A stretch of 64,000 nucleotides of DNA from a virus (Duplodnaviria > Caudoviricetes). The stretch's first letter is position 1. Every line of letters starts with the position of its first letter. The stretch is taken from positions 1 through 64,000 of the IMG/VR virus record IMGVR_UViG_3300020576_003018. One strand, given 5' to 3'. Both the position numbers and the translations under genes were made by a program. Positions 9,094-55,277 of the stretch are shown here, one piece after another. Below the pieces are notes generated by a model, which saw nothing but the letters and a program-made list of their open reading frames with translations, was not told the DNA's origin and did not search any database.

Positions 9094-9860
9094 AGACCAA
9101 AACCTCTCCTCAAATCATTTGCAAACTCCTCCACTGAGGCATTCCCAGAAGGTGATGTTTCTGTTTCTGTTGTTGTTCTTCCTGGTGAAGGAGAAATATC
9201 CCTGGAAGGCAAGGAAGTGGGAACAACTTGTATTATTCCCTCCCTTTGGTCTCTCTTCTGGTTATCTTCCACTACCCCAGAAAACCCAGACGTTCTGGAG
9301 ATGTATTCTTCAAAAGATTCTCCAACTTCGGAAATCGCTCCAGGAGGATTATTACTGCCACCAAAATCTCCAGATGGCCCCGTGGTCGGTTGAACCACTT
9401 GAAGGCTCTCTATATTCCCCACAGCGCCAGCAAATGCCATGCTGGCTTGGTTCAACCTGATATTGTCAGGGTCGGAGTTATCAGACCCAACTCCATCCGG
9501 GTCGTTGGGGCACAACGGGAAAAAAGAACCAATGAAAGGCAGTGGATTCAAAAGCGATTTGATAAAACACCACAAGGCTTTCAAAATGGAGAAAGCCATC
9601 GCATAAGCCATTAGCTTGATCGGATCCGCTGAAGTTGGAGCGGGTTGCCTCACTCCAGTTACAGGAAATTTGAACGCAGCATAAAGACCATCACCCAAAA
9701 TCCTTGTTGCGGCATTTACAGGCGCTGGGAGTGCCGTAATGGCCGTTGAAACAGCAGCAAGTTTTGCCGTGTTGGCTGCAACATTTGCAGAGTTTTGAGT
9801 ATCCCTAAAAGTTTGAGCGGTTGATTCTGCTCTGATCCTCGCCAAATCATCTTGTGACAT
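9090..9860 (-). CDS. Hypothetical protein; low-complexity C-terminal half carries repeat copy A in frame
   Basis: 256-aa ORF coupled to the gp25-like gene; contains VEDNQKRDQREG. Confidence 0.65.
   Translation of the reverse strand: MSQDDLARIRAESTAQTFRDTQNSANVAANTAKLAAVSTAITALPAPVNAATRILGDGLYAAFKFPVTGVRQPAPTSADPIKLMAYAMAFSILKALWCFIKSLLNPLPFIGSFFPLCPNDPDGVGSDNSDPDNIRLNQASMAFAGAVGNIESLQVVQPTTGPSGDFGGSNNPPGAISEVGESFEEYISRTSGFSGVVEDNQKRDQREGIIQVVPTSLPSRDISPSPGRTTTETETSPSGNASVEEFANDLRRGFGL
9241..9273 (+). repeat. Dispersed repeat copy A (core cttctggttatcttccact at 9255-9273)
   Basis: 19-mer identical to 15926-15944 and 55198-55216, one mismatch to 27010-27028. Confidence 0.9.
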
Positions 9861-9878
9861 TGAGAGTTTTCCTTTCCT

Positions 9879-11654
9879 TCATTGCCCAAAGATTTTCGAG
9901 CTACGGCTTCGATAAACAGCTTGGTTGGTTGCAACCCTGTGTTGGTTGATGGCTGTTCTCAGGTTGTTTCTTCTGAGCGTAATGTTGGGATTAAGGGTTG
10001 CCCATGCCGTGTCCGGACCACCAGGAGAACAAACACTCAACTGCCCAGCCGTTTTCATGTCTTCAACAAGAGAAGAATAAGCTGTCTGCAAAGCATCAAT
10101 CTGGCGTTGCAAACCCTCCACAACCTTTTTGAACTCTGTCCATTTGATGTAAGGCTCCAAACCGGCAAACCTGTTCTCTTCTCCAACAGTCAGTTCCGCC
10201 GTTGATCCTTCCGGGTTTCTTGGTCTGTCGGGCGGAGGTTGTTGATTCCCGTTGTTGAGAGGATTCAGAGAAGCTCCACCAAGGAAAATCTGCAAACCAT
10301 CAACCTGAACTCTTCCTTCTGGAGACATATACAAGTAAGCCAATGAGTCATTTGGAGGTGCCCCAGCGTTTGCACTGTCCGGGGTTCTGTTCTTCCCTTC
10401 TTTCAAAATCAGAACACTTCCACTGATCGGTTCAACTGCATTATCTGAAGGCAACGAACGCCTTGCAACCAAACGAACATGATCAGCTTTCCCAACAAGG
10501 TATGAATTTCCCGCTCCATTGCTGGATGATGGAAATTGAATTGGAAAAAGACTGTTGGATGAAAAATTCAGTCCAGAGGTTTGCATTGCGTTGTTTGCAG
10601 CGCCAGTTGCAGTTCTTTGGAGCCTGAAGTTTTTATCTCCTTCTGTTTTCATGGAAAGGGTTAGCCTGACGGCATCTCTTGCCAAATCTGGTTCACCTTC
10701 GTTGAGATTTTCCCCTGGTTTACCATTCAACTTTGGTGTTTTATCCGTTTCCAGCAAGCTCCTGGAGTTGAAGGCTGTGAGGGGAGAGGAAGTTGTGGAA
10801 GTGGCTGTTGCTGGTTCGAGAAGGTACCTTCCGCGCCCTGCGACCATATCAATGCACCCGACATAAGGACGAACCTCCGCGGGCTGTAATAAGCCTCCTG
10901 GGCGGTCCTGCCCCAGGACAATCAAGGTGTTGTTCATCCCCTGAATGACAAATTCTTGTGGATGTTTTGTCCACCTTGGAACAACTTCGTATGTGTGTTT
11001 GACTGAGCCTGAGATTGACTTCTGATAAAGAAGGTCGAAGGGATTGGTTGAACCAGCCTGGGGAAGTGTTGTTGTTTCTTCTGTTCCTCCTCCGTTGGGA
11101 AAACCTGGGGAGAAACTTCCTGGACGTGCTGTTTGTCTTGCGAGAGAAGAGCTTGTTCTTAAAACACCATTGATTGTTTCAACGAAAAAACGTCTGTCGC
11201 CATGAGTGAAGTTGGTATCCTCAACCATGTATCCTTCTGGAGTTCTTGTGATCCACTTCCCACTTCTGTAACCAAACTTGTGAAAATCTTCAAAAACAAC
11301 AGTGATTTGCTCGCCAATTTGAACTGGGAGCATGAAATGGCTTTGAAAAAAGGGAGAAAGAAGGACTCTTGTTGCTGTGGCATCGCTGACACCATCAGAA
11401 GTGATCAGAGCAACAACACTGTTTGCTGCGACATTTTCAACAGACTCTGGGTTGACGACCAGGGCACGAAGCCTGTCTTTTTCCAGGGAATTTAGCGCTC
11501 TTGGATTCCAGACAATCTCTTCGACAACCCCCTTTTGGAAGGTTGGAGGAGTTCCGGAAGAAATAAGGTCAACGGTTGGTTTGGCAAGATCGAGAACTGG
11601 TGTGGTTGCACCAGCAAGAACACGACCAACGTTAATGTTTGTGTGAGATGACAT
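9879..11654 (-). CDS. Putative baseplate hub/spike protein (gp5/VgrG-like OB-fold N-terminus)
   Basis: SPFFQSHFMLPVQIGEQITVVFE resembles the gp5 OB-fold motif (P..GE.V.V.F). Position next to gp25/gp6; TATTTA 10 nt upstream. Confidence 0.55.
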   Translation of the reverse strand: MSSHTNINVGRVLAGATTPVLDLAKPTVDLISSGTPPTFQKGVVEEIVWNPRALNSLEKDRLRALVVNPESVENVAANSVVALITSDGVSDATATRVLLSPFFQSHFMLPVQIGEQITVVFEDFHKFGYRSGKWITRTPEGYMVEDTNFTHGDRRFFVETINGVLRTSSSLARQTARPGSFSPGFPNGGGTEETTTLPQAGSTNPFDLLYQKSISGSVKHTYEVVPRWTKHPQEFVIQGMNNTLIVLGQDRPGGLLQPAEVRPYVGCIDMVAGRGRYLLEPATATSTTSSPLTAFNSRSLLETDKTPKLNGKPGENLNEGEPDLARDAVRLTLSMKTEGDKNFRLQRTATGAANNAMQTSGLNFSSNSLFPIQFPSSSNGAGNSYLVGKADHVRLVARRSLPSDNAVEPISGSVLILKEGKNRTPDSANAGAPPNDSLAYLYMSPEGRVQVDGLQIFLGGASLNPLNNGNQQPPPDRPRNPEGSTAELTVGEENRFAGLEPYIKWTEFKKVVEGLQRQIDALQTAYSSLVEDMKTAGQLSVCSPGGPDTAWATLNPNITLRRNNLRTAINQHRVATNQAVYRSRSSKIFGQ

Positions 11655-11679
11655 CTAAGGCTCCTAAATAGCCAAAACG

Positions 11680-12117
11680 TCATCCTCGCATATTGTTCTT
11701 GAGTTGTTGAAACAGATTACCCGTTGTAGGAAGTTCATCTGCTTCTTGCTTCTCCTTGGCTTTGTAAACCAACTCAGCAAGCTTCAACAACTGGGCATTC
11801 GCCTTTTCCATGCGCTCAAGATATTTGCTTAGATGATCTCCATGAATAACATGCTGCTCCGGATTGCCAAGAACAATGGTATAAAGATCCAGCCAGATGA
11901 TGTGTGCATTCCTGCGATCTTCAAGACTGTTCCTGTAAATTTGTTTCCAAAGCATTCTTAGCTTCTCATCAATTGTTGTGAGAGAATCCAAGAGAACCGA
12001 GAACTCATTCAAATCTTCTTCGGTGTCTCGAATTGTTTTCTTGATGTCTGATTTCGGTGAGGATAGTTCTCCCACCAAATCAATGTTGGCAAGAATGGTT
12101 TTTGTTTCCGTTGTCAT
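11680..12117 (-). CDS. Hypothetical helical protein
   Basis: 145-aa ORF coupled to the sigma-like gene. Confidence 0.7.
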   Translation of the reverse strand: MTTETKTILANIDLVGELSSPKSDIKKTIRDTEEDLNEFSVLLDSLTTIDEKLRMLWKQIYRNSLEDRRNAHIIWLDLYTIVLGNPEQHVIHGDHLSKYLERMEKANAQLLKLAELVYKAKEKQEADELPTTGNLFQQLKNNMRG

Positions 12118-12920
12118 GGCTGGGAGTCCAGATGTTCTTTTTCTTTGTCAGCATCGGAAGATGATTGGGGCAACCTTTCACCCTCTTGGATCTCAAGCTG
12201 CTCCTTTGCGGTTTTGTAATACTTCTTCAAAACCGTGAGAACACTGCTCAGTTGCTTGGGGTTCTTCAAAGTTGTAATTTCCCGCAGATAAAGCATCACA
12301 GCACGCTTGTTCAAAAAGTCCAAGTCTTCAAGGTTATCAAACAACACACGAATACCCTTAAATGCTTCTACTTCATTTTCCGTTGCAGTTTGCTCTTGAA
12401 TTAACTGAAGCAGACGAGCCAGTTTTTTTTCGTTGTGTTCGTTGATCAACGCATCTTCTGGTGACAGAGCAACGTTGTGATTTTCTATTGTCTCCAGATC
12501 ATGAGCAGAGAGGGTTTCCCTGTCATCCAATGAAGTGAAAGTGTTTATGATTCTATGGCTTTGTTTGCTTCGGCAAATGAGAAAGTTTTTCGCAACAACG
12601 TTGAAGTATGAAAAGGCTTTGGTTCCTTTTGATGGATCGAACTTTGCCAGTGCTCCATAAAGGAATTGAACCGTTTCTGCTTGAAGGTCATGCCTGCTTT
12701 CATATTGGATTTGAAAACCATAAACGTTGATAAGGTTTTCTACCAGTTTGTTGAAGGCAGGGAGAATTCCTTCAACGAAAATCTTGGTTTTTGCCTTGGG
12801 ATCCTTTTCGTTGTTAAACTCAACGATGGAATCTTGCGTTCCTGCGTTGAAGTAGAATTCTTGAGGAGTTGCGCCACCTTTTGGTTTGCGCTTGATGATT
12901 TTTCTTCCGGCTGGTGGCAT
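12114..12920 (-). CDS. Phage RNA polymerase sigma factor (late, gp55-like region 2)
   Basis: DLQAETVQFLYGALAKFDPSKGTKAFSYFNVVAKNFL matches sigma region 2 (KFDP.KG..FS.Y). Confidence 0.75.
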   Translation of the reverse strand: MPPAGRKIIKRKPKGGATPQEFYFNAGTQDSIVEFNNEKDPKAKTKIFVEGILPAFNKLVENLINVYGFQIQYESRHDLQAETVQFLYGALAKFDPSKGTKAFSYFNVVAKNFLICRSKQSHRIINTFTSLDDRETLSAHDLETIENHNVALSPEDALINEHNEKKLARLLQLIQEQTATENEVEAFKGIRVLFDNLEDLDFLNKRAVMLYLREITTLKNPKQLSSVLTVLKKYYKTAKEQLEIQEGERLPQSSSDADKEKEHLDSQP

Positions 12921-12921
12921 G

Positions 12922-13242
12922 TTATTCGGCCTCTACGTTTTCTTCTAGTCTGATATATCGTTGCTTGCTACGTTGTGTGAAGTTGTAAACCAACTTCTGT
13001 GTTGCTGTTTGACAAACTTTGACATTTTCCAACGCCTCTGTTGCTGCTCTTTTCACTTCGGGCGCATCAAAAAACATTGGTGTCTTCAAAATGGCTTCTA
13101 GTGTTGCAGCCGTTCTCTCGTGAATTTCAATCGCCTCAGACAAGTCGTCTTCCAGAAGAAAAATGATCTTGGCCCATCTAACAGCAAAGAAACCAGCAAA
13201 ACCAGTTGCAACAGCAAGAATCAGAAGAAAAACATACAACAT
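12922..13242 (-). CDS. Small membrane-anchored protein
   Basis: Probable start MLYVFLLILAVATGFAGFFAVRW (one hydrophobic helix) at ATG 13242, overlapping the upstream TGA. Confidence 0.65.
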   Translation of the reverse strand: MLYVFLLILAVATGFAGFFAVRWAKIIFLLEDDLSEAIEIHERTAATLEAILKTPMFFDAPEVKRAATEALENVKVCQTATQKLVYNFTQRSKQRYIRLEENVEAE

Positions 13243-14459
13243 CAGGAACTCCCCAAAACGCCACCAAGGGCTTTTGAGTAAATACTGGATACCGCGTCGA
13301 ACGAGTATTCTTTCTGAATCACACAAGCCAAATCCTTGGCCCACTGCTTCGGCATAGAAGAAGATTCAAAAAACTTCTTAAACCTTCTTTTCGCATCAAA
13401 CTCAATTGGGTTTGCCCATTTCATTCCTGCAAGGAAGATTTGTCCATCAACCCTTGACGCAGGAATCTCACCCAACATCCGATCAACTGGAATGAATTTA
13501 CCGTGCTTCAGAAATTCAAGATGCCCACTCCAGTTTGTTGCAATCACTGGAAGACCACAAGCAGCCGCTTCGAGAATTGGAAGACCGTAACCTTCCCCAT
13601 GCGTCAGAGAAACCAACGCAGCAATATCTTTGTGCCGATACAACCGATTCATCTCTTCATCAGTCATGTGACCATGAAGCAGGTAAAACGTAGGACCAGG
13701 AACCCCAGCAGGCTGAATCTCTGCAACCAACTTCGTGAAAATCCCCTCGATGTTTTTCTTGTCAAATTGTGTCTGAGCACCAGCATTCGTCTTGACAATC
13801 ACACCAACGTCCTTATTCCCCGCAAATGTCTCTGCAATCCATTTGAGGGTATAAGGAAGGTTCTTCCTGTCGTTTTCAGGATTGGTTCCGGTCAACTGAC
13901 CAACAACCAGCAAATTAAATTTCGTTGTCAATCCCAGGTCCAGGTCTGGATCTTCTGGAATGAGTTGATTCTCCATTCGCATTGCATCAGGAAAAGCTTC
14001 AGGGATCACAACAACAGGAACTTTGATTTCTCCTGTTGCCATGAAAGTCTCTTTGGTGAAGGTGCTGGGGACAACAACCATGTCCATTCTGTTGATACAA
14101 TCAATCCAAGCTGGATTGCATTTGTCTGTCTCAACTCCAGCAGTCACTCCGATGTTAAAGTTCCCCAAGAAAGGATTCCATTCGTTTGGAAGTTGGACTT
14201 GGATTGTCACATCGTAGAAGGACTTCTTGTTGCCAGAAGCTTGAAGTATCTGACCAATCAAGCCGTCTTCGGCTTCTGGATCGACAAGGAGGTGTGTATC
14301 TCCCCAAGGAAGTGGCTCGGTTGTAATGTCAAGGTTGTGTTGTTCAGACGCAACCCGAAACAGCCAACGAGCAATTTGACGGGTATGCACGCCGTAACCG
14401 GCATGTACCAACAATGGACCCCTAAGCAAAACGGTTTTCTTTGTTGTGGTGTTCATCAT
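13242..14459 (-). CDS. Glycosyltransferase family 4 (GT-B)
   Basis: GYGVHTRQ at the N-terminus and the C-terminal HGEGYGLPILEAAACGLPVIATNWSGH motif. Confidence 0.9.
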   Translation of the reverse strand: MMNTTTKKTVLLRGPLLVHAGYGVHTRQIARWLFRVASEQHNLDITTEPLPWGDTHLLVDPEAEDGLIGQILQASGNKKSFYDVTIQVQLPNEWNPFLGNFNIGVTAGVETDKCNPAWIDCINRMDMVVVPSTFTKETFMATGEIKVPVVVIPEAFPDAMRMENQLIPEDPDLDLGLTTKFNLLVVGQLTGTNPENDRKNLPYTLKWIAETFAGNKDVGVIVKTNAGAQTQFDKKNIEGIFTKLVAEIQPAGVPGPTFYLLHGHMTDEEMNRLYRHKDIAALVSLTHGEGYGLPILEAAACGLPVIATNWSGHLEFLKHGKFIPVDRMLGEIPASRVDGQIFLAGMKWANPIEFDAKRRFKKFFESSSMPKQWAKDLACVIQKEYSFDAVSSIYSKALGGVLGSS

Positions 14460-14470
14460 CTGTAGGTTGC

Positions 14471-15784
14471 TCACTTGTTGTTGAGTTTGGAGCATGTCCA
14501 ACGTTTTGGCGGGTTGTTCCTAAAATCTGTGATCAATTTGCTCAACGTCCTGTCCCACTCTGAAATCATTTGTTCGTAGCCAAACTCATGTTCTGCGTAA
14601 GCAATGTTCTTCTTTGCAAGCAATTCCTTCTCTTCTGGAGACATGGAATAGACCTTGTGAAAAGCCGCCGTCAAATCTTCATGCTTGAAATGATCGTCGA
14701 AGATGTAAGGAACCATTTGTGAACCAACGAGAACACGACAAGCTGGATCAATTGCAACGCCATGTTCCGAGCCATCCCGATAATCAACAACTTGACGTGT
14801 CATTCCACCTGTCTTCAATGCGATAATCGGTTTCCCAACCATCAATGCTGACAAGGTTGCCAACCCAAACCCTTCTGCCTTCGACACATTCACAACAAAA
14901 TCAACCGAGTTGTAAAGCGCATTCATGTCGTTGAAATCAACCTTTTGAGTGGAAAACACAACATTTCCAGCAAGGCCGAGATTTTCAACAGTCGCAAAAA
15001 GGTTTGGACCTTCGGTATCCTGTGGATCGGTGTGCATCACAAGCATTGCTTTCCTGTGACCTTCCTTCCTCTCCAACTCATCCAAAAACATCTTCCAGGA
15101 CATCAACACATCATTTGGCATCTTCCTGGTTGCGTTCCTGTTAACCCAAGCCCCAATAAACCAGTCAGCACGATCCTTGTAATTCACAAGCCTCAATTGT
15201 TTCACCGTATCCGCTGGAAGTGGGCAATAAACCTCCTTCGGAAACGCATGGGGAATGTAATTCGTTTTCTCTGGGAAATGAGGCTTGACAAGATCGTAGG
15301 TCTTGTGAGAAAGGCAGTTGATCAAGTCTGTTGATTTGTACCAAACATCGTTGAAGGCTGGGTATGGATCATTGTCCCAGACGTGCCAATAAGCAATGGG
15401 ACACACTTGATGCACTTCGTCTTCCATCTCCCAAAGCCACATAAACTGTCTTGGATCAGTGAATAGGAGGACCGCATCCGGTCTTTCATTGATCAGAAGA
15501 TTTCTGATCATGTTTCTATCACCGAAACCGTCAACGGGTTTGATAATGAAGTCTGGATTTACTACAATTGGATCATAGTTCGGATGTTTGATTGCTCCTC
15601 CAAGACAACGAAAGGAATACCTCCCGGTTGCAACAAGGCCGTGAATAAGAAAGCGACTTTGTGTACCGACACCTGAAGTACACAATGGATGATCCCCCAG
15701 CATCAAGATTTTGTGCTTCCTAGCAGGAAAACTTGGAATTTGCATGTTCATATTCAACTCTGGTTTTACCACTTCCGACTTCAT
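14471..15784 (-). CDS. Glycosyltransferase family 4 (GT-B)
   Basis: SGVGTQ N-terminal motif, VNRNATRK, and KAEGFGLATLSALMVGKPIIALKTGG. Confidence 0.9.
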   Translation of the reverse strand: MKSEVVKPELNMNMQIPSFPARKHKILMLGDHPLCTSGVGTQSRFLIHGLVATGRYSFRCLGGAIKHPNYDPIVVNPDFIIKPVDGFGDRNMIRNLLINERPDAVLLFTDPRQFMWLWEMEDEVHQVCPIAYWHVWDNDPYPAFNDVWYKSTDLINCLSHKTYDLVKPHFPEKTNYIPHAFPKEVYCPLPADTVKQLRLVNYKDRADWFIGAWVNRNATRKMPNDVLMSWKMFLDELERKEGHRKAMLVMHTDPQDTEGPNLFATVENLGLAGNVVFSTQKVDFNDMNALYNSVDFVVNVSKAEGFGLATLSALMVGKPIIALKTGGMTRQVVDYRDGSEHGVAIDPACRVLVGSQMVPYIFDDHFKHEDLTAAFHKVYSMSPEEKELLAKKNIAYAEHEFGYEQMISEWDRTLSKLITDFRNNPPKRWTCSKLNNK

Positions 15785-15790
15785 TGGATA

Positions 15791-16711
15791 CTAACTCTTT
15801 TGTCTAACTGCCGATGGACTAGATGCCCAATCCCAATTGGCTCGAACTTCCTTGTTTCTTTCCCAAACCGCCTTGAAAATCTTAGACGAGGGGGAAGGAG
15901 TATTAAGAGCCCCCTTTGGATCCCTCTTCTGGTTATCTTCCACTGAGCAATCTTCTTGACAACTTTCAATCGTTGAAACAAGGGCGTTGATGTCTTTGGG
16001 GAAACAGGTGCCACCAAATCCATAATCTCCATCGGGGCCAGGGACTTTTGTGTGGCTGGGACCAATTCTCTTATCGGAGACAACACCGGCAACAACATTT
16101 TCGTAGGTTGCGCCCATTTTTTCAGCCAGGAACTTTATCTCGTTGAAGAACATGGTCTTGGTTGCCAGGAAACAGTTCGCAGAGTATTTTACAAGCTCGC
16201 TGTCGGTGCTGGACATGGTGAGGGTGGGAACATGAGGGAACTCGCCCGCATAAAGCTCCTGGAGCGATTGAAGGGCATCCTGGTCATCCCCACCCAAAAC
16301 GGTTCGGTCTGCATTGAGGAAGTCTTGGTTGGCTCTTGCTGCTGTCAAAAACTCTGGGTTATGAACAAGTCTCAATCCCGGAAATTGCTTCTGGAGTCTT
16401 TTCGTTGTTCCCACTGGAACGGTTGATTTGATAACGAAAATTGAAGAAGAGGGGATTGGGTGGTTGGAGGCTTGAGAGAAAAAGGATTCAATGATGGAGA
16501 GATTTGCTTCTCCACCTTCTGCGCTTACCATTGGAGTTGGAAGACAGACAAAGATGAACTTTGACTGGAGGGCTTCTTCCAAAGAACACGTTGATCTTTT
16601 CGGATCAATGTCGTAAACTTTTGGATTGAGTCTTGAGAAACCATTGGCAACTGCTCCACCCACAAAACCATTACCAATCACACTGATTGTTTTTTCATTG
16701 TTGCTAGACAT
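15791..16711 (-). CDS. ugd: UDP-glucose/GDP-mannose 6-dehydrogenase (short phage type), with in-frame repeat insertion
   Basis: IGNGFVG Rossmann motif, VCLPTP, IKSTVPVGT, HNPEFL, ELVKY..N and GFGGTCFPKD catalytic Cys motif. Confidence 0.9.
   Translation of the reverse strand: MSSNNEKTISVIGNGFVGGAVANGFSRLNPKVYDIDPKRSTCSLEEALQSKFIFVCLPTPMVSAEGGEANLSIIESFFSQASNHPIPSSSIFVIKSTVPVGTTKRLQKQFPGLRLVHNPEFLTAARANQDFLNADRTVLGGDDQDALQSLQELYAGEFPHVPTLTMSSTDSELVKYSANCFLATKTMFFNEIKFLAEKMGATYENVVAGVVSDKRIGPSHTKVPGPDGDYGFGGTCFPKDINALVSTIESCQEDCSVEDNQKRDPKGALNTPSPSSKIFKAVWERNKEVRANWDWASSPSAVRQKS
15889..15944 (+). repeat. Dispersed repeat copy B with AGGGGG...CCCCCT stem
   Basis: 15916-15944 is 28/29 identical to 27000-27028; preceded by a 6-bp inverted repeat. 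Confidence 0.9.
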
Positions 16712-16713
16712 TT

Positions 16714-22508: not shown

Positions 22509-23486
22509 TCAGGGACAGTGAGGCGTGTTGGCATAAGGACAGAACCGACAGTTTTGTCGGTTTTTGGGGAAGATCTTCCTTTTGACGTGTCCAAGCATTG
22601 AATCAACGGTTTCCAGGGCATTGCTAAGTGCTTTTGGTCCAACTGACACTGGGACATATTCACAGTTTCCAGGTTTCTTGGATCTGCGGAGAATGACGAA
22701 GGCACAACGGATCTTATCCAGAGGTATACCTGTCTTCTTGGAATAGAAGTGTTTGTAGAGAACCAATTGCATCGTCTTGTTTGGATCTGTTTTTTTGGAA
22801 ACAGGCCAAAAGTAACCAGAGGTTTTCCAGTCTATCAAGTGAGTGATTTCCTCACCTTTCTTATTGGTTGCAGTGATCACACCATCAATGAAACCTTTGA
22901 AAAGATGGCTGTGCCCATCAATTGGTTCCATCAATGGAAATTCACTGGCGACGTATTTCCAATCTTCTCCGAATGTTTCATTCATGAATGCTGGGACTTC
23001 TGACAGGATTGGTTCAATGACACCGTGCCATTCTTCTTCTTTCAGGGAAGCAACGTTTGGAAGTTCGCTAAATGCGTAAGAAAGACCAACTTTGATATCA
23101 TCGTAGGATGGCATCTTTCTGGTTTCCAGGAACACTTCAAGGGCTGTGTGAATCACATGACCGAATTCTGTGTGTTCGGATGGACCATCCAAAGCTCCAC
23201 CATTGATCTTGTCCAGATATTTCAACTTGTGACGGAAAGCACACGTTCTCCAGGTAGAAAGCTCGGAGAACGAGATGTTTCCACGGATTGAAAGATAATC
23301 CATGTTGGTTGGAGCAGAGAAATCTAACCCAACAGGCTCAATCTTGGTTTTTCCTTCGAGAAGAGAATCAATCGAATCAGAAGTACGAATGTTTTCCGTG
23401 CTTGTCTGAATGATTTTTAGATGCTTTTTTGTGAGATTGGGAGGAGATTCGGAACTAGGCTTTGGTTTTTTTGGTGAGGCGCTCAT
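22509..23486 (-). CDS. PD-(D/E)XK nuclease, Cas4/RecB-like, with Fe-S cysteines
   Basis: ISFSELSTWRTC, FGHVIH, GFIDGV...IDWKTS, QLVLY and C-terminal CRFCPY...HC. Confidence 0.85.
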   Translation of the reverse strand: MSASPKKPKPSSESPPNLTKKHLKIIQTSTENIRTSDSIDSLLEGKTKIEPVGLDFSAPTNMDYLSIRGNISFSELSTWRTCAFRHKLKYLDKINGGALDGPSEHTEFGHVIHTALEVFLETRKMPSYDDIKVGLSYAFSELPNVASLKEEEWHGVIEPILSEVPAFMNETFGEDWKYVASEFPLMEPIDGHSHLFKGFIDGVITATNKKGEEITHLIDWKTSGYFWPVSKKTDPNKTMQLVLYKHFYSKKTGIPLDKIRCAFVILRRSKKPGNCEYVPVSVGPKALSNALETVDSMLGHVKRKIFPKNRQNCRFCPYANTPHCP

Positions 23487-23509: not shown

Positions 23510-24313
23510 CTACTTCTTTGTCTTTGACTTATTTTTGCGCTGTTTCTTTTTAGCAGGGAGAACTACTCCCTTGCCATCATCTTCCTCTTTTTCTCCCAGA
23601 GGATCATCAACAGGGACAATGTTCGACAGTGGATGTTCCGAAACAATGCCGCGCCAGTGCGCTGGTTGCTTATCAAAGTCTTCTTCGGTTGGAAAGGTTC
23701 CACTAGGAGTGTTGTGTCGAATGACTCTTACATGCCTCTTGGAGTCATAGGGAATATCCTCCGGGTCCATCCCCGTTAAGAGATCTCCAAGTGATTTCTT
23801 TAACGGGGATGGAAATGCTGCATCTTCTTCCATGAAACAACCACAGCCGCAAACATCACATCCAAGTTGTTCATCTGGCTCGCAGTCACCTTCGCACCCA
23901 CACACGTCACAAACGCCACAGGAGCCTTTTCCTTGCCCTTGGATTTCTTCAACGGGTTCCTGGTCGTCTTCCTCGTCTTCGTCGATTGTAAAAGCTTCTG
24001 GGGCCTCTGGCGGCTGTGTTGGCGAGCCACCAACATCAACACTTTTGCCTGGGGTTGTTTCATCACCACAAGAGTCATCACACATGTGAGCATCAGGGCT
24101 GTGATCACAACAAGGAGCCATGACCTTTTTAAGTTCATCAACAGCAAGATCAATTGCTTCGTGAACGTCGGTGAGGCTGGTGATCATATCTCTCGACATC
24201 TGCCCGGTCTTTTCCACTTCCTCAAGCATGTCGTGCATGTCTCCGAAAAGAGATTTCAGTCCACCAATGAAAAGACGTGCTTTTAGTGGATGGTTGGTTT
24301 TTGCTTTTGTCAT
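23510..24313 (-). CDS. Acidic, Cys-rich hypothetical protein
   Basis: Probable start MTKAKTNH at 24313; contains CGVCDVCGCEGDC and GCDVCGCGC clusters and a basic tail. Confidence 0.65.
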   Translation of the reverse strand: MTKAKTNHPLKARLFIGGLKSLFGDMHDMLEEVEKTGQMSRDMITSLTDVHEAIDLAVDELKKVMAPCCDHSPDAHMCDDSCGDETTPGKSVDVGGSPTQPPEAPEAFTIDEDEEDDQEPVEEIQGQGKGSCGVCDVCGCEGDCEPDEQLGCDVCGCGCFMEEDAAFPSPLKKSLGDLLTGMDPEDIPYDSKRHVRVIRHNTPSGTFPTEEDFDKQPAHWRGIVSEHPLSNIVPVDDPLGEKEEDDGKGVVLPAKKKQRKNKSKTKK

Positions 24314-25773: not shown

Positions 25774-26850
25774 TCATTTCATGGAGAGGTAAACATCAGA
25801 AACATACTTGAGGGCAACACGTCCGTGTTTTGAATCAAATCTTTCAGCCCGATTCAACTTCACAACAACACCCTCACGAACAACCTGACCGGGAAACAAA
25901 GTCTCCTTCGCTTCCGCCAATTCAGAAAGATTTACTTCTGAAAGCTTCCCGCGGAACAAAACTGGAACAACTTCCTTCATCCCTTCTGAGTAAGCTGGAT
26001 TGTCCAACATCTCTCCATTAGAAACCCAGCGACCGTTTTCCATCACGTCAAAGGCGGCAAAACCATATTCGCCATTCTTTTTCCCGTATGAGAATTGTCC
26101 CCCCTGAACGTTGGGACCATAAATCTCTCCGTAAAGAACAGCCTTGGGATGTGCTCGGCACCAATCCTCAATCCAAGGGTTCTGTCGAATAGCTTCCCAC
26201 CACAAGCAGGACTCGGGCCCAATAACCTTTGTAACTTCCTCACCTTCCTTGTTTGTGTAGGTGATTTGCCGAGGCTCAACCCCACTTGGATTCCTCTTCC
26301 AAGTCTTGTGACTCCCAGCGTGCATCTTCTCACCATCAAAAACAAATCGTGCGTTGGTTCCATGAATCTTCACGGAAACATTCACTTCATCTTCTGGATT
26401 GAAAAGACGATGATATTTCCTGAAATTCTCCAGTTTGTAAACTGGGGCTTCGACATACTCTGGGCCTTGGGTTGCAACTCCAGCCTTGGTTCCACTGAAG
26501 AAAGTTGGAGGATCGTAATGCTCCACTTCCAGTTGCTCCATGACATCATCTCCCTCAACAGCACCTTCGGGAGCTTTGATCAAAAGCCCATAGGAAGGCT
26601 CCCCGCGGAGACGAACAACCGTGAGACGATGACGTTCGCGGCCCTTGCCCTTGTCCAAGTGCTGGAATTCAGGGCGAGAAAGCTTAACCGTGTTGTCCGG
26701 TTCAATGAACGCAGCCAAATCACCGACTTGGAATTGTCCCTTTCGAACGACTGCTTGGTATCCCCAAACAGGAATGATTTCGAGAGCATCGGCATTGGGA
26801 TGTTTTTTTACTTCTTCAACCCGAATCACTTTTACTTCGTGTGTGCTCAT
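25774..26850 (-). CDS. ATP-dependent RNA ligase (DRB0094/Rnl5-like, with N-terminal OB-like domain)
   Basis: HPNADALE N-terminus, motif I KIHGTN, YGEIYG, AFDV, EGVVVK and C-terminal KYVS..YL. Confidence 0.88.
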   Translation of the reverse strand: MSTHEVKVIRVEEVKKHPNADALEIIPVWGYQAVVRKGQFQVGDLAAFIEPDNTVKLSRPEFQHLDKGKGRERHRLTVVRLRGEPSYGLLIKAPEGAVEGDDVMEQLEVEHYDPPTFFSGTKAGVATQGPEYVEAPVYKLENFRKYHRLFNPEDEVNVSVKIHGTNARFVFDGEKMHAGSHKTWKRNPSGVEPRQITYTNKEGEEVTKVIGPESCLWWEAIRQNPWIEDWCRAHPKAVLYGEIYGPNVQGGQFSYGKKNGEYGFAAFDVMENGRWVSNGEMLDNPAYSEGMKEVVPVLFRGKLSEVNLSELAEAKETLFPGQVVREGVVVKLNRAERFDSKHGRVALKYVSDVYLSMK

Positions 26851-26943: not shown

Positions 26944-26959
26944 GCCGGGGGAGGCCCCC
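26944..26959 (+). repeat. GC-rich 16-mer gccgggggaggccccc (also at 55262-55277)
   Basis: Exact 16-nt match; can form a G5/C5 stem. Confidence 0.8.
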
Positions 26960-26990
26960 TTGAGGTTCCAAAACACCTTATCCTATAGGA

Positions 26991-27029
26991 TTCCCTCTCT
27001 TGGATCCCTCTTCTGGTTATCCTCCACTA
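26991..27029 (+). repeat. Dispersed repeat copy C
   Basis: Its reverse complement reads VEDNQKRDPREGI versus VEDNQKRDQREGI in copy A. Confidence 0.9.
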
Positions 27030-27088
27030 ACGGGAGGAGCATCCCCCACAAGGCAAGGGTCATGCCAATACTTACCGAAGGAGTTCAA

Positions 27089-27526
27089 GTGCTTAATCTA
27101 AAGCGGTTTCTTTATCTCGGAGAACAAGTTGTGGAGGATGCTCCTCCAGAGTCTGAATCCGAAAAGCCTTTTGCAGTTTTCGCATTGGCGAGGGTTGGTT
27201 CTGGTGGGTATGCAGCCACAACACGTCCAGCAGATCGTGGTCAAGCTGGGAAAATAGGGTTGCCTGGGGGGAAGCTAGATCCTGGGGAAGATCCTTTGGA
27301 GGCTGTTTTGCGCGAATGTGAGGAAGAGGGTTGGTCTGTTCGGATCAGCAACCGCGAACCAATTCAAAAGCTTATGGTCGATGGGAAAATGGTTTGGTGG
27401 TACCAAGCTGATCCTAACCCAAAGATTCTAACCCAATACAAAGAAAAGCACAGAATCGTTCCTGTTGTTGTTTCAAAGGATGCTGTTCTCACATCTGGAT
27501 ATGGGAATGAAAGATTGCCGCTATGA
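27089..27526 (+). CDS. Nudix hydrolase
   Basis: Nudix box GGKLDPGEDPLEAVLRECEEEGW. Probable GTG start at 27089 after AAGGAG and TACTTA (ATG 27062 is the alternative). Confidence 0.85.
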   Translation: MLNLKRFLYLGEQVVEDAPPESESEKPFAVFALARVGSGGYAATTRPADRGQAGKIGLPGGKLDPGEDPLEAVLRECEEEGWSVRISNREPIQKLMVDGKMVWWYQADPNPKILTQYKEKHRIVPVVVSKDAVLTSGYGNERLPL

Positions 27527-47965: not shown

Positions 47966-47983
47966 TTCAACCACATAATTCTC

Positions 47984-48012: not shown

Positions 48013-48018
48013 CTCATC

Positions 48019-48762: not shown

Positions 48763-48772
48763 AGTGGTTAAA

Positions 48773-49807: not shown

Positions 49808-50129
49808 TCCAAATTCCAGATATGTTCCTTGGCGAATCAAGATTGGAGATCTTGTGTTGATTCGTGCCAGTTTGGTTTATCATCCTGCTTCTGATGATGA
49901 CTATATTCTTGCCGTATTGGTAGAAATAAAAGAAGAAGGGGTTGATTTTATCAACCCCTGCAAGATCGTCTTTCTCTCCCCAAAACATGACAAAATTGCC
50001 ATCTTTCTCTCCCCAAAACATGACAAAATTGCCATCTTTCTGGACGTTGTGGAAAACGAGGTTGTTGTGTCAAAAGCAAACAGATACCTCATCAGACGCG
50101 CACCAAAAGACGAAAATGAAACAGGTTAA
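49791..50129 (+). CDS. Small paralog-family protein with an 11-aa internal duplication
   Basis: IKIGDLVL; FLSPKHDKIAI occurs twice. Confidence 0.65.
   Translation: MATPYNPNSRYVPWRIKIGDLVLIRASLVYHPASDDDYILAVLVEIKEEGVDFINPCKIVFLSPKHDKIAIFLSPKHDKIAIFLDVVENEVVVSKANRYLIRRAPKDENETG
49969..50041 (+). repeat. Perfect 33-nt tandem duplication with 7-nt flanking microhomology (tctttct)
   Basis: 49969-50001 = 50002-50034, followed by tctttct. Confidence 0.95.
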
Positions 50130-50644: not shown

Positions 50645-50895
50645 TCGAAACATACAGAAATCTTGTGATTGGAGGTCTTTACAAAATTAAAGATTGCTTT
50701 CTGCTTGTGCTTGGAGGTCTTTACAAAATTAAAGATTGCTTTCTGCTTGTGCTTGGACCTTCTGAAGAATACCCGAAAGATCGCGTTTATTGCATTGAAT
50801 CTTGGAAAACACAAGAGGGTATTCGTGTTGAGTTGGGCCATGTTCTAATCACCACCATTCTCAGGCATTACAAACTCGTTTCAACGGAGGAATAA
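50641..50895 (+). CDS. Small paralog-family protein with a 14-aa internal duplication
   Basis: GGLYKIKDCFLLVL occurs twice. Confidence 0.7.
   Translation: MIETYRNLVIGGLYKIKDCFLLVLGGLYKIKDCFLLVLGPSEEYPKDRVYCIESWKTQEGIRVELGHVLITTILRHYKLVSTEE
50669..50757 (+). repeat. Perfect 42-nt tandem duplication with 5-nt flanking microhomology (ttgga)
   Basis: 50669-50710 = 50711-50752, followed by ttgga. Confidence 0.95.
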
Positions 50896-50899
50896 AAGG

Positions 50900-51133
50900 A
50901 TGGAGTTGCGCTATCCTGACGACATGCCACTAGAAAAGGGTTGCCCTTATCCGATCATTGGTGGATTGTACCAACATCTCTTTTTTCCCGACACGTTTCT
51001 CCTTGTTGTTGAACACCATTCCGGTTCGGTTTTTACTTGCCTGGAGACAAGCGTTGGGAGGGATCCGATAATTTGTCACCTTTACGCCAGTTCCATTCAT
51101 CAGTACACCACTCTCGTCACCGATTTTGGTTGA
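50900..51133 (+). CDS. Small paralog-family protein
   Basis: PIIGGLYQ...FLLVV...TCLET. Confidence 0.7.
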   Translation: MELRYPDDMPLEKGCPYPIIGGLYQHLFFPDTFLLVVEHHSGSVFTCLETSVGRDPIICHLYASSIHQYTTLVTDFG

Positions 51134-51158
51134 CTCTGGCTCGAAGGCGGGGTAGAGT
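51130..51158 (+). promoter_or_regulatory. Sigma70-like promoter, 6 nt from ATG
   Basis: TTGACT, 17 nt, TAGAGT, 6 nt, ATG 51165. Confidence 0.75.
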
Positions 51159-51164
51159 CTGGTC

Positions 51165-51413
51165 ATGCTTCATCGAATGCCAAAACCGGGAGATGTGATC
51201 CAGCGCCGCACAGCGCAGTGCCGAGTTCTTTTTGTTCTTTCGAGTTTCGATGAAAAAATTGACAAGAAGTTGCATGAGGACAATTCACACTGTCGGATTG
51301 AGGCATTGGCACCTAACGGGACAAAGATCGAAGTCGTAGTAATCTTCTACGACAGTTGGATTTTCTTCATTGATTCAGAAGTTTCGGATAGAACCAACAA
51401 AATAGAGGAGTGA
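51165..51413 (+). CDS. Small paralog-family protein
   Basis: PKPGDVI...LFVL...EALAPNG. Confidence 0.65.
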   Translation: MLHRMPKPGDVIQRRTAQCRVLFVLSSFDEKIDKKLHEDNSHCRIEALAPNGTKIEVVVIFYDSWIFFIDSEVSDRTNKIEE

Positions 51414-51910
51414 AAGAGGATAACATGGAAGAGACGACTATTACAGAGAAGAAGGTTACGGTTCAGATCAAGGAGAATCCGCGGGACGTGTACTACATGC
51501 GTGGTCAGCAAACCCGAGATCATCTCAAGGCCAGAATGGAAGCCTTGAACGCTGGATATGATTACGACAATCCAGATTTTGACAAGATTCGAGAGTTTCT
51601 TGGGACTCTTCAAGTGGGTGACACGATTGGTCTTGACGACACAGCTTACAAGGTGGCAAAAGTTAACATTCCCGAGTGTTCTCTTTCCTTGTTCAATCTA
51701 ACACTGGCAAAACGTGGCAATCCACCAGCCGTGGATATTGCTTCGGAAACGATTGGGTTTGCTCTTGCGTGTGGGTTTGCTGAGATCCTTTATCGGGATG
51801 ACAAGCCTTACGGAATTGAGCTTGAGAAGGAATACACCATCAAGATTGTCAAGCGCGAAAAGGAGGAATCTGAAGATGGCACTGACGAAGAAGCAGAAAG
51901 TGATTCTTGA
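51410..51910 (+). CDS. Acidic hypothetical protein
   Basis: 166-aa ORF. Confidence 0.65.
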   Translation: MKEDNMEETTITEKKVTVQIKENPRDVYYMRGQQTRDHLKARMEALNAGYDYDNPDFDKIREFLGTLQVGDTIGLDDTAYKVAKVNIPECSLSLFNLTLAKRGNPPAVDIASETIGFALACGFAEILYRDDKPYGIELEKEYTIKIVKREKEESEDGTDEEAESDS

Positions 51911-52073
51911 TCGGTTTTGTTCTGGCACCACCAGGACTTCCGTGGTAGAGTACGAAGACCTTCCAGCCCATGTTCGTGAAGAGCTTGAGGGTGGGAAGCT
52001 GTGGGAATCACTTTGGTGTGATGCCACTCGATATGTGAATGATTCCCTGAACCCCAACAGAAAGAAAATGTAA
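51876..52073 (+). CDS. Small hypothetical protein
   Basis: MALTKKQK... with AAGGAGG upstream. Confidence 0.5.
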   Translation: MALTKKQKVILDRFCSGTTRTSVVEYEDLPAHVREELEGGKLWESLWCDATRYVNDSLNPNRKKM

Positions 52074-52159
52074 CTGATGACGAAGGTTGAACTCGCTTTC
52101 ATTCAACACTTCCTTTCTCTCTTCCTTGCTCTTTCCACAAACACTGCCAGGAAACACAA

Positions 52160-52555
52160 ATGACTGAAGCTGAGATCCTTCTGCTGCTTCCTTCTGTTTT
52201 CTCTATTCTGGAGAGCAGAAAGGAAAAGATCCTGGCAGAGTATAAAACCTTTGAGGAAGATGAGGATATCGACCCGAAAAAACTTTGGAGTCTTCTTGTA
52301 GACTCAAAGAGTTGGTTCGTTGCAGATGTTCACGAACTTCCAATTCAAGAGTTGGTGATGGTTGTTGATGATCTGCAAGCCATTCCAGATTGGTGTTGTG
52401 GCATGACTTATGTTTGCGTTCCTCCCTCTCAGTTGAAAGGAAATGAAATCGTGAAAACTTGGGTTTTTGAGTCAAAGCACGAAGAAGTCGATGAAGGCTT
52501 CGACTTGGTTGTTTGGACGGCTGACGACGCCATCGTTGCATGGGATTTCCGATGA
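52160..52555 (+). CDS. Acidic hypothetical protein
   Basis: 131-aa ORF coupled to the exonuclease gene. Confidence 0.6.
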   Translation: MTEAEILLLLPSVFSILESRKEKILAEYKTFEEDEDIDPKKLWSLLVDSKSWFVADVHELPIQELVMVVDDLQAIPDWCCGMTYVCVPPSQLKGNEIVKTWVFESKHEEVDEGFDLVVWTADDAIVAWDFR

Positions 52556-53127
52556 TTGAAACAAACAACAAAACATATCGTTGTTTTCTCGACACTGAAA
52601 CAACCGGACTGAACACTCGAAAGGATCAGATCATTGAGATTTGTTTGGTGCTGGAAGAATTTGATCCAGACCATCGTCACCTTCGTGGAAACATCGTTAG
52701 GACATTCACAACCAAGGTAAAGCCAACAATCAAAGTTGCTGAAAAGGCAGCGGTAATCAACGGATACACTCCAAAAGCCTGGGAGTATGCTCCTTACTTC
52801 TATGAGATTGCAGATAAGGTCGCAGAGATTTTAAGTCTTGCCATTGAGATTGTTGGGCACAACATCTCTTATGACAGAGCAATCATTGAAGAAGCAATGA
52901 TTCGTTGTTCTGGGCATGAGGATTTCAGCTTTTATCACACGATTGATACTGCAACCTTGGCTTATGAACATTGGGTGGTTCCCGGTTACATCCCCAAGCA
53001 AAGCTTGCCTGTTGTTACAAAGTATCTTGGAATCGAGCATTCCAAGGCTCATAGTGCCGAATCAGATACTCTTGCCTGCCGAGAAGTTTTTTATCGGGCT
53101 TTGAGTGAAGTAAACTGGAAACCGTGA
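52552..53127 (+). CDS. DEDDh 3'-5' exonuclease (DnaQ-like)
   Basis: FLDTETTG, VGHNISYD, IDT and AHSAESD motifs. Confidence 0.92.
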   Translation: MIETNNKTYRCFLDTETTGLNTRKDQIIEICLVLEEFDPDHRHLRGNIVRTFTTKVKPTIKVAEKAAVINGYTPKAWEYAPYFYEIADKVAEILSLAIEIVGHNISYDRAIIEEAMIRCSGHEDFSFYHTIDTATLAYEHWVVPGYIPKQSLPVVTKYLGIEHSKAHSAESDTLACREVFYRALSEVNWKP

Positions 53128-53402
53128 AGGAGTTCAATGGCACAATGATGTATTTTGTGACGACTGCATGGAGAGGTTCTCTCAACATTTCGAATGCTCG
53201 CATGTTTACTGACCTTGATGAAGCATTGAAACACTATCGTGTTCTGGCAAAAATGGAAGAACCTTTTTTGTCTGAGGATGGAACTGGTTGTTTTATTCGA
53301 ATTTATGAGAGTAAAGCGGGTGAACCTATCAAGCTGATGCCGGTAAAAGTGCTTAGGGCTGCAATGGCCAAGATCATCAAGAACGAATCCTCTTCTTCCT
53401 AA
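53124..53402 (+). CDS. Hypothetical protein
   Basis: 92-aa coupled ORF. Confidence 0.6.
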   Translation: MKEFNGTMMYFVTTAWRGSLNISNARMFTDLDEALKHYRVLAKMEEPFLSEDGTGCFIRIYESKAGEPIKLMPVKVLRAAMAKIIKNESSSS

Positions 53403-53405
53403 TCG

Positions 53406-54179
53406 TCATTCTCCTCCGAGAATGACCTTCTTCAAAACATCTTTCAGGTTTGCTGACTCGTTGACTCGATCTCTTCCGAGGTTTGGATCAAATGTTCCAG
53501 TTGGTGTTGACTTGCTTTGTGCGTAGTTCAATGCTTGCTGGGACATTCTTTGTGTTGGAGCAGCACGAGGAACTCTTCCAGAAACTCCGAAAGCTGGGGG
53601 AGAAGGGGTTACTCTAGCAGCACTACGAATTTCATCCGGGGTTTGGCTTGCAGCCATTGGTTGTGTTTCATTTGATCTCGTTGCACCAAGCTCAGAAGTT
53701 CCCATGTGTTTTGTTGGGTTGCTTGCTGGGTTAGCAACGGCATTTGGAGTTACTGCTGGCAAAACCTTCCCTTGAGGAATTGTTGGTGCTGTTGCAACAT
53801 CGCTTTTTGGAAGTGGAGGAGGAGGATTCCCAGCAGAAACCGCTTTCGCAACAGTTGAAGAGTGTTTTGCTGTATCCTTGTCCAGCTTCATCCCTGGTGG
53901 TTCTCCCATAAATTTGATTGAGCCAAGAGCACCAATGTCAGATTCAACATCGTCAATTGCGTCATAAGCTTTTTGGAAGTCTGGGAGTTTTGATCCTGGA
54001 CTTCTGACTGTCATTCCGATGTTGTTGAGTTTGCGAAGGGTTGCTCCTTTCAAGGCATCGACAACGGGAGAGTTTTTGATTGAGAATTCTTGTTTCCCAG
54101 AAGGAGATGGAGTGCTGTATTGCTCAGGCAAAAACTTCTCCAGAATGATCCAGTCTTTAATGAGGTTTTTCAAGGACAT
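53406..54179 (-). CDS. Low-complexity Pro/Ala/Thr-rich probable late/virion protein
   Basis: TATTTA 13 nt upstream of ATG 54179; N-terminus MSLKNLIKDWIILE. Confidence 0.65.
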   Translation of the reverse strand: MSLKNLIKDWIILEKFLPEQYSTPSPSGKQEFSIKNSPVVDALKGATLRKLNNIGMTVRSPGSKLPDFQKAYDAIDDVESDIGALGSIKFMGEPPGMKLDKDTAKHSSTVAKAVSAGNPPPPLPKSDVATAPTIPQGKVLPAVTPNAVANPASNPTKHMGTSELGATRSNETQPMAASQTPDEIRSAARVTPSPPAFGVSGRVPRAAPTQRMSQQALNYAQSKSTPTGTFDPNLGRDRVNESANLKDVLKKVILGGE

Positions 54180-54228
54180 AGGTGTTGTCATGTAAATACT
54201 GACACCTGGGCAACAAAGATAAACAGGT

Positions 54229-55125
54229 ATGCCCAACATCGAGTTTTATGTTCCAAACAACGCCGAAGTGATTTTCGTTGAGGATTTTTTCGTGGATGAG
54301 ATTCTGGGAGGTGCCGAGCTGACCTCTGATGCCATTATCCAGGCCGCCGATAGGATGGTATGCCACCTTCACTCACGCTCCCTCACCGAGCGCCTTGTTA
54401 AAGCTCACAGAGCCAAGAAATGGGTGTTTGGAAATCAAACCCAGGTTCCCCACTGGATCCTTAACCTCTTCCTTGAACTCAACGTCGAATATCATTTCTT
54501 TGAGTACGACTACAAACCATGTGTCTATCGCTCAACCAAAAAACATGAATCCATCACTGGAAAACCATGCGACTGCAATCAATCCCAGCACGGCCAATGG
54601 ATGGCCCACTGGATGACAAGCGCAAAAACATTGTTCTGGTGCTCTGGAAAACAACGAGACAAGTTCTATTCCGAATATCCTCATCTCGCCGGTAAAACAC
54701 GAGACTTTGTTCAAGGATCCACCTTCTATCCAGAAACAATCAAAAAGATTCGTGCTGTCAGAGAACAAAATCTCCCAGCACAAGATCATTGGTGCATCCT
54801 CGATTCCGATAGCTGGATCAAGGGAACCTCTGACGCTGTTGATTTCTGCAACCAAAATGGAATGAAGTTCGTGCTGCTTAAAAATCTCAGCAACGAAGAC
54901 TTTCTAAAACAACTAAGCTCCAGCAAGGGTCTTATCTTCTTTCCCAGAGACATGGACGTTGGTAGCAGAATCACAATTGAATCAAAACTCCTGGGGAGAG
55001 AAGTTATCCTGAACTGCAACGTCCTCGTCCAGTTTGAACCCTGGTTCTCTGGGAGCTTGGAAGGCATCGAAGAGTATTTCCTCGACGGACCAATGAGATT
55101 TTGGAAAACAATCCGCGGCTCCTAA
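54229..55125 (+). CDS. GT-B-like glycosyltransferase (isolated from the main cluster)
   Basis: GGAE N-terminal motif; C-terminal LKQLSSSKGLIFFP..MD.GSRITIESKLLG resembles a GT4 signature. Confidence 0.55.
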   Translation: MPNIEFYVPNNAEVIFVEDFFVDEILGGAELTSDAIIQAADRMVCHLHSRSLTERLVKAHRAKKWVFGNQTQVPHWILNLFLELNVEYHFFEYDYKPCVYRSTKKHESITGKPCDCNQSQHGQWMAHWMTSAKTLFWCSGKQRDKFYSEYPHLAGKTRDFVQGSTFYPETIKKIRAVREQNLPAQDHWCILDSDSWIKGTSDAVDFCNQNGMKFVLLKNLSNEDFLKQLSSSKGLIFFPRDMDVGSRITIESKLLGREVILNCNVLVQFEPWFSGSLEGIEEYFLDGPMRFWKTIRGS

Positions 55126-55174
55126 CTCTTCCCTTCTTGAGAACCACTCTCACCTTCTTGACCATCCTCTTCTT

Positions 55175-55217
55175 TAAGAGATGCCTCCTTCAATCCCCTT
55201 CTGGTTATCTTCCACTA
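55175..55217 (+). repeat. Dispersed repeat copy D
   Basis: Core 55198-55216 is identical to copies A and B; the upstream ttaagag..cc.cctt flank is shared with copy B. Confidence 0.9.
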
Positions 55218-55261
55218 GGCAAGAAAGTTGATCAAGGAAACCCCTAGATTCTCTGGGGGAA

Positions 55262-55277
55262 GCCGGGGGAGGCCCCC
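55262..55277 (+). repeat. GC-rich 16-mer, second copy
   Basis: Identical to 26944-26959. Confidence 0.8.

Follow-up and report, generated by a model that had tools for sequence, protein, structure and literature searches.

The repeat and its setting in the window

The stretch analysed here (the window, 64,000 nucleotides) covers positions 1 to 64,000 of the IMG/VR virus record IMGVR_UViG_3300020576_003018 (Duplodnaviria; Caudoviricetes) and carries a short dispersed repeat that lies both within unrelated genes and between genes. The record is 77 kb long with an estimated completeness of 21%, corresponding to a genome of about 370 kb. The plus strand carries the 19-mer CTTCTGGTTATCTTCCACT exactly at 9255-9273, 15926-15944, and 55198-55216, and with a single mismatch at 27010-27028, against an expectation of 0.03; a scan of the window recovered all four positions listed in a preliminary description, including the single-mismatch copy. 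A shorter 14-nt core, TGGTTAT[C/G][T/C]TCCAC, has five exact copies in the window against 0.05 expected (Table 1). The fifth lies on the minus strand and is conserved in relatives, contradicting the earlier statement that all copies face one way.

Table 1. Copies of the repeat and the accompanying 16-mer in the window
Feature	Positions	Strand	Details
Copy A	9227-9275	+	core 9259-9272; antisense reading VVEDNQKRDQREGI
Copy B	15896-15945	+	core 15930-15943; antisense reading SVEDNQKRDPKG; loop of UGDH-like protein
Copy C	26979-27030	+	core 27014-27027 (TGGTTATCCTCCAC); intergenic
Copy D	55169-55218	+	core 55202-55215; intergenic
Copy E	6182-6233	-	core TGGTTATGTTCCAC at 6185-6198; preceded by pyrimidine run
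GC-rich 16-mer GCCGGGGGAGGCCCCC beside copy C	26944-26959		exact; separate small repeat
GC-rich 16-mer GCCGGGGGAGGCCCCC beside copy D	55262-55277	+	exact; terminator-like stem-loop, then T run

Copies A and B are read in a common frame in two unrelated minus-strand proteins, as previously described. The host of copy A is a 256-aa protein without known family (9090-9860) that adjoins baseplate genes, and the copy occupies its variable C-terminal linker; the copy is kept in the related contig L022 and is absent from the 36%-identical orthologue in contig L020. The host of copy B is a short UDP-glucose dehydrogenase (UGDH)-like protein (15791-16711), in which the loop is approximately 15-19 aa longer than in homologues; a 65%-identical homologue in L020 holds a G-type variant, GTGGAACATAACCAAGAG, at the same position. 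This protein belongs to a large short-form family of about 280 aa that lacks the canonical C-terminal UDP-binding domain and has thousands of metagenome homologues. Copy E gives the sense reading SSPSFGYVPLT in the baseplate-like gene 5118-6722, with orthologous copies in the related contigs G001 and G003.

Copy C is flanked by divergent genes, RNA ligase (25774-26850, minus strand) and Nudix (27062-27526, plus strand). Copy D lies 44-77 nt past the stop of 54229-55125 (plus strand), a gene without an assigned name, and precedes a terminator-like hairpin and a polynucleotide kinase (PNK)-like gene (55291-55827, plus strand). An open reading frame (ORF) on the minus strand, 55174-55515 (113 aa), runs antisense to the whole PNK-like gene and ends in the repeat (..LVEDNQK..); it is kept open in its G001 counterpart, where it spans 234 aa from stop to stop, and is probably non-coding.

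Contigs from four independent studies span copies A, B, and C, so these copies are not assembly chimeras, and the bridging contigs together with the excess over expectation rule out chance or an assembly artefact as the origin of the repeat. Contig depth over the element is 10-14 times the flank depth, which points to many copies per sample.

Occurrence in related phages

Throughout, G000 denotes the genome of the window, while G001-G010 and the L-numbered records are related viral contigs, all of them partial and metagenomic. An exact scan of viral contigs placed the motif in seven further contigs, and at least 10 related contigs are now seen to bear it, at a density of about one copy per 16-46 kb. 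The wider scan that the preliminary description had proposed returned further copies, with counts per strand. In G001 (241 kb), allowing up to three mismatches, there are 14 copies, eight forward and six reverse; a profile search adds one reverse copy, and a reversed-pattern control gives 0. A scan with the variant TTGGTTATGTTCCACT, followed by a core search, found 3-12 copies in each of five more jumbo contigs, with 0-1 for the control. G001 and G003, which share 82% identity with the window, have a copy at each of its five sites, and the part covered by L022 has both A and B.

The motif-bearing group consists of uncultured phages of wastewater and freshwater with genomes of about 370 kb, and the relatives encode T4-type portal, baseplate wedge, and sheath proteins. 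DNA of the window was found in metagenomes of at least 12 studies (wastewater, sludge, and freshwater), and the search for a cultured relative gave only a weak match to Microcystis phage Mel-JY01. The motif was found in none of the genomes of 185,579 prokaryote species, for which reason a host-derived repeat was rejected, and a literature search for the motif returned unrelated primer matches only.

Selection on the DNA letters

The same element is read differently from site to site. Antisense readings give VE[DH]NQ.., WKITRRGIQE, or GLPEEGSK/SGTQPKEE in three frames, and sense readings give GY[VLP]PL or WLSST in at least two frames. Since identical letters serve four or more frames or orientations, VEDNQKRD was ruled out as a functional peptide. 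One antisense frame would give a TAA stop. G001 and G005 avoid it with TGGTAAT and G008 with TGGTTGT, and these frames are long and open.

The baseplate-like gene of copy E offers the closest view of codon choice, its homologues having been gathered through other conserved peptides so that the sample is unbiased towards the motif. GGT-xAT-GTT-CCA-CTA is kept in 16 of 16 dereplicated homologues (60-68% identity). Each of the three invariant residues of the motif uses a single codon, compared with 6% of the 157 invariant columns across the gene, and third positions are fixed even where Tyr changes to Asn, Ser, or His. The pyrimidine run encodes serine by TCT or TCC alone, never by a purine-ending codon.

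The nucleotide-level conservation in orthologues on which the earlier proposal depended is likewise present: identity between G000 and G001 or G003 is 88-100% within the element, 73-92% in the flanks, and 82% overall. Taken at the level of aligned letters and codons, these patterns show that the element is selected as DNA, not as protein.

Matching sites in distant genomes

Matching sites were obtained from an all-against-all comparison of motif-bearing open frames, followed by alignments. In a PolA-like (family-A-polymerase-like) protein, whose DNA_pol_A Pfam match is weak, the core lies in a loop just after ..LEPRV.. in six genomes of five lineages at 30-47% identity. The copy is read in antisense frame c in G001, G005, and G008, in antisense frame a in G006, and in sense in G004 and G009. 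The arm of this site holds GGATCC in the G001 lineage and a plain pyrimidine run in G008, a difference suggesting that existing sites are overwritten from other copies.

Further matches extend over several protein families. A GroEL-like protein has ELVE[DH]NQ in three lineages, and a 373-aa protein in four genomes opens with ATG, the pyrimidine run, and the core, so that the start codon lies upstream of the core and the core is translated. The portal protein of G001 carries a copy in its C-terminal tail, and the baseplate-like genes that lack the usual site (G010 and L231) hold the core elsewhere in the same gene. Overall, the proteins at matching sites are 30-65% identical and their copies are intact. 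The alignments show, over the contigs compared, that a given gene neighbourhood keeps its site through long spans of evolution.

Beside the PolA-like gene of G001, three adjacent proteins of 1127, 1130, and 1667 aa (G001:120905-133182; L057:905-13182, minus strand) belong to no Pfam or PHROG family. A phage RNA polymerase was considered among the three and rejected: a protein atlas comparison, which covered the two larger proteins, puts the 1667-aa protein near tape-measure proteins and the 1130-aa protein near tail proteins, the 1127-aa protein being judged by Pfam and PHROG only.

These sites bear directly on the earlier suggestion that the repeat is a miniature mobile element, similar to Rickettsia palindromic elements (RPEs), whose in-frame copies are tolerated. 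On this explanation, a selfish mini insertion element inserts copies of itself into phage DNA, survives where the reading frame is preserved, and stays uniform through gene conversion or the demands of a mobilising enzyme. In-frame presence was confirmed and is wider than first described, with copies in unrelated proteins in several frames and both orientations. Alignment of host-gene homologues gives partial support for insertion, through the longer UGDH loop and the restriction of the linker copy A to near relatives. Genome-specific subfamilies exist, G000-G003 having a GGATCC arm and G004, G006, and G007 a C-rich one; these, and the occupation of the PolA-like loop in opposite orientations, as for a target-preferring element, fit the same account.

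Other observations speak against a mobile element. In G001 and G008 the PolA-like loop is hardly longer than normal, the motif replacing sequence rather than adding to it. The unit has no hairpin or palindrome, no inverted ends, and no target duplication; TnpB (PF07282), Y1 (PF01797), and rve (PF00665) were not found in five records that are 25-81% complete; and no empty sites occur among the 82%-identity relatives or in four metagenomes. Old copies at matching sites are intact with synonymous positions frozen, and insertion in the stop-containing frame would require a simultaneous rescue mutation, yet this frame is seen at four sites. On balance, we regard a mobile element as an unlikely explanation.

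Anatomy of the unit

The unit spans about 40-45 nt, with similarity that fades leftward and a sharp right edge, and reads ..TTGGATCCCT-CTTCTGGTTATCTTCCACT in this genome. Within the window, the previously reported identity of 28/29 between copies B and C was confirmed, as were the reverse complements of A (VEDNQKRDQREGI) and C (VEDNQKRDPREGI) and the flank similarity of about 30-45 nt, measured here as about 31-45 nt leftward with a sharp right edge after CCACT. Across 52 aligned copies, the general form starts with a small A/T box at -40 to -20, continues with a pyrimidine run of 8-30 nt and the core, and closes with T/A, which an A often follows. Conservation stops after CCAC[T/A], and a purine is favoured just after it.

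The arm to the left of the core differs between lineages. The arm TTGGATCCCT occurs in this genome and near relatives, GGATCC marks G000-G003, C-rich arms occur in G004, G006, and G007, and CTCTTCTAAT is found in G009. Directly left of copy C stands a perfect 12-bp palindrome, ATCCTATAGGAT, at 26980-26991, and small, differing inverted repeats surround the A/T box at B (GGGGG..CCCCC) and D (CTCTT..AAGAG).

Several structural candidates were tried and rejected. Six folds (three copies, both strands) gave z values of -0.64 to +1.47, no better than shuffled sequence, and no Rfam match was found in the window; a structured RNA or known RNA family was ruled out on both grounds. Inverted cores within 150 nt of a site do not exceed background, and the absence of a second copy nearby excludes a paired or palindromic full site. 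An AT-rich unwinding region beside the site was rejected, the A/T box being only 20 nt and not extended. A micro-ORF (ATG, pyrimidine run, LLVIFH, stop) accompanies some copies (those at B and D in G001) and is not general.

Orientation and gene order

The plus/minus counts are 4/1 within 50 kb in the window, 8/7 in G001, 5/7 in G008, and 3/4 in G009. Orientation relative to genes is likewise mixed, comprising sense, antisense, and both intergenic directions, and is thus free. Antisense coding copies are in excess in G001, as expected from the hydrophilic residues that the purine-rich strand encodes. Orthologous copies follow their gene blocks in synteny. The preliminary description had also suggested a plus-strand RNA lying antisense to minus-strand late mRNAs. 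The mixed gene orientation and the flip in the PolA-like gene argue, on the alignments at hand, against a fixed antisense-RNA role.

A polarised DNA signal, with its direction set by replication, recombination, or packaging, had also been put forward. In G001, every copy to the left of about 91 kb is reverse and the majority to its right are forward; in three genomes, the copies on either side of the structural block are directed away from it. Two G001 copies, at 150.6 and 174.8 kb, break the pattern; G008 (260 kb) reads + - - - + + - - - + - + without a single switch point; the window itself is divided between strands; and the strand pattern largely follows which gene strand tolerates a purine-rich reading. 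Of that proposal, a signal at the DNA level is supported and its polarity is not, and we consider a polarised signal very improbable.

A role at recombination junctions is not supported by breakpoint statistics or by identity steps. Between G001 and G008, 3/6 and 2/6 synteny breakpoint intervals contain a site (P 0.12 and 0.38, not significant), and no identity step was seen at the five window sites between G000 and G001 or G003. Copy D in G001 falls within a 176-bp synteny breakpoint relative to G008, an observation that is suggestive only.

Transcription signals near the repeat

The intergenic copies C and D share an exact GC-rich 16-mer, as described earlier, which is not part of the repeat unit. 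At C it is found upstream of the repeat, at a distance of 50 nt; at D it is found downstream, 46 nt away. The account of the repeats as sitting beside promoters was loose: they do lie near the RNA ligase and PNK-like genes, but at C a near-consensus sigma70 promoter of the ligase (TTGACA-17-TATGAT, 26915-26887, minus strand) separates gene from repeat, and at D the terminator-like hairpin separates the repeat from the PNK-like gene.

The repeat could itself be a promoter, or another one-way transcription signal, recognised by the host RNA polymerase with a phage-encoded sigma factor, with TAnnnT (TATSTT) as the -10 element and a start just after CCACTA; copies within genes would then yield antisense or internal transcripts. 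The core does hold TAnnnT, and its conservation ends sharply with a purine preferred after it. Several intergenic copies lie 3-117 nt upstream of a co-directional gene (Nudix for C, the PNK-like gene for D, G001:219954, and G008:180612), and a small RNA might result at D from the terminator-like hairpin about 45 nt past the copy. G001, G008, and G009 encode Sigma70 region-2 proteins. In the window, a 268-aa protein in the structural block (12114-12920, minus strand) has a sub-threshold Sigma70 region-2 match (E 0.014, below the Pfam cut-off); a clearer region-2 protein is the 295-aa protein at G001:233465-234352 (L239:1267-2154), and sigma region 4 was detected in neither of these two proteins. 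No match to a T7-like RNA polymerase was found, but control genomes were equally silent.

Against a promoter, roughly half of the sites are directed against neighbouring genes or away from them, and no consistent direction towards a downstream gene was seen. Conserved sites lie deep inside essential genes, the PolA-like copy is flipped between lineages, and in the 373-aa family the core is downstream of the start codon and translated. We therefore consider a transcription signal doubtful.

Other features of the window and its relatives

Gene-sized insertion polymorphisms add 1244, 1003, and 317 letters in contigs of other strains at window positions 15684-15807, 22814-22825, and 23770-23914; these joints fall between the UGDH-like and glycosyltransferase genes and farther along, in the glycosylation and structural region. 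GIY-YIG/NUMOD3 (Seg-like) homing endonuclease genes are located among baseplate genes at L020:16904-17830 and L022:20412-20894, with none at the corresponding place in the window. An array of small paralogous genes contains tandem duplications at 49969-50034 (33 nt x2, 100%) and 50662-50745 (42 nt x2, 98%).

A selected recognition site as the favoured explanation

Selection on DNA letters, persistence at matching sites, and lineage-specific arms are best accommodated, in our view, by a cis-acting DNA recognition site that is kept by selection, homogenised by short-patch copying, and possibly used as a nick or binding site, a reading held with middling confidence and derived from comparative sequence analysis. 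The excess of copies over chance, the mixed orientation relative to genes, the lack of a fold, Rfam match, or transposase, and the absence of the motif from prokaryote genomes also speak for it. Such a site would be placed at intervals of about 16-46 kb wherever it is tolerated, namely between genes, at gene starts, and in the loops and linkers of essential proteins. A phage-encoded, sequence-specific protein would bind the site or nick it at the edge between CCAC and T, and repair or short-patch copying from other copies would homogenise the arm on one side. Cutting with one-sided repair is proposed because of the sharp edge after CCAC, the one-sided similarity, and the concerted change of arms within a genome; one-sided copying would in turn explain the lineage arm, the extra UGDH residues, and the way the PolA-like loop varies in phase and orientation.

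Several considerations weigh against this recognition site. The orientation flip in the PolA-like loop needs re-insertion, as a mobile element would do, and some of the nucleotide conservation could arise from gene conversion alone. Gene calls in the relatives come from a simple, self-written caller script and are crude. Spacing that is more even than random counts in favour of the site (coefficient of variation 0.55, 0.56, 0.53, and 0.30 in four genomes; P 0.016, 0.04, 0.12, and 0.007), but the genomes are few and share some sites, so that the tests are non-independent. Finally, known phage nick systems are one-stranded (PMC3517423), whereas the sites described here are on both strands.

A more specific version of the recognition site holds that two-strand nick or loading sites mark the chromosome of about 370 kb fairly regularly, serving as clamp landing points or as starts of recombination-dependent replication. 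The clamp would belong to the replication or late-transcription machinery, and nick-induced one-sided repair would keep the sites uniform. This version is speculative and, in our estimate, improbable.

Comparison with known systems

Several known systems of dispersed sites resemble the repeat in part. The stoperators of Cluster A mycobacteriophages are reportedly binding sites of the L5 repressor, 13-14 bp long, asymmetric, and present in 20-35 copies. They occupy intergenic and coding DNA of temperate phages, show genome-specific variants that track the binding protein, and keep a fixed direction relative to transcription. The repeat shares the dispersed, short, asymmetric form and the genome variants, but its direction is free. 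PeSL cassettes of T4-type phages are said to be intergenic promoter-early stem-loop units that can mediate modular exchange. Like them, the repeat is short and dispersed in T4-type genomes, and copies C and D adjoin a GC hairpin and sigma70-like hexamers; unlike them, its core has no hairpin, it lies mostly within genes, and its link to breakpoints is not significant.

Bacterial parS sites are cis-acting, palindromic, often located inside genes, and conserved in their letters beyond coding need. Baculovirus homologous regions (hrs) are dispersed and positionally conserved, more alike within than between genomes, and form palindromic, tandem, intergenic arrays. Both resemble the repeat as cis-acting sites, and both differ from it in being palindromic. 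A ParB/parS system was rejected, no ParB family protein having been detected. RPEs likewise occur between genes and, in frame, within unrelated proteins; they are 100-150 bp long, palindromic, and thought to be selfish, whereas the unit described here is about 45 nt long and unstructured, with nucleotide-level purifying selection and sites kept across deep divergence.

The localised nicks of T5/BF23, phiKMV-like phages, and Pseudomonas phage tf have a short asymmetric consensus and number from a handful to about 14 sites per genome (PMC3517423). Those sites lie in coding DNA on one strand, their consensus is 7-20 nt without a pyrimidine run, and their role is unknown (PMC3517423). The repeat resembles them in its conserved consensus, which varies between phages, in positions shared by relatives, and in its coding location. 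It differs in occupying both strands, in its pyrimidine run, and in the genome size of about 370 kb.

Significance

The repeat is a clean natural case of a single DNA segment serving at least four protein frames. Dispersed cis-acting sites that override codon choice in essential genes are rare and informative, and those described here point to a genome-wide process, such as nicking, replication start, clamp or regulator loading, or chromosome organisation, in a large uncultured jumbo-phage clade that is common in wastewater and freshwater. If the more specific version with two-strand nick or loading sites is true, coding and signal would jointly constrain the site within essential genes, and the sites would form the jumbo-phage equivalent, on both strands, of the nicks of T5, phiKMV, and tf, giving those a testable function. 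The motif may be used to fish out its reader protein, to recognise the clade in metagenomes, and to probe why some phages mark their DNA at fixed sites, a question raised by the T5 nicks.

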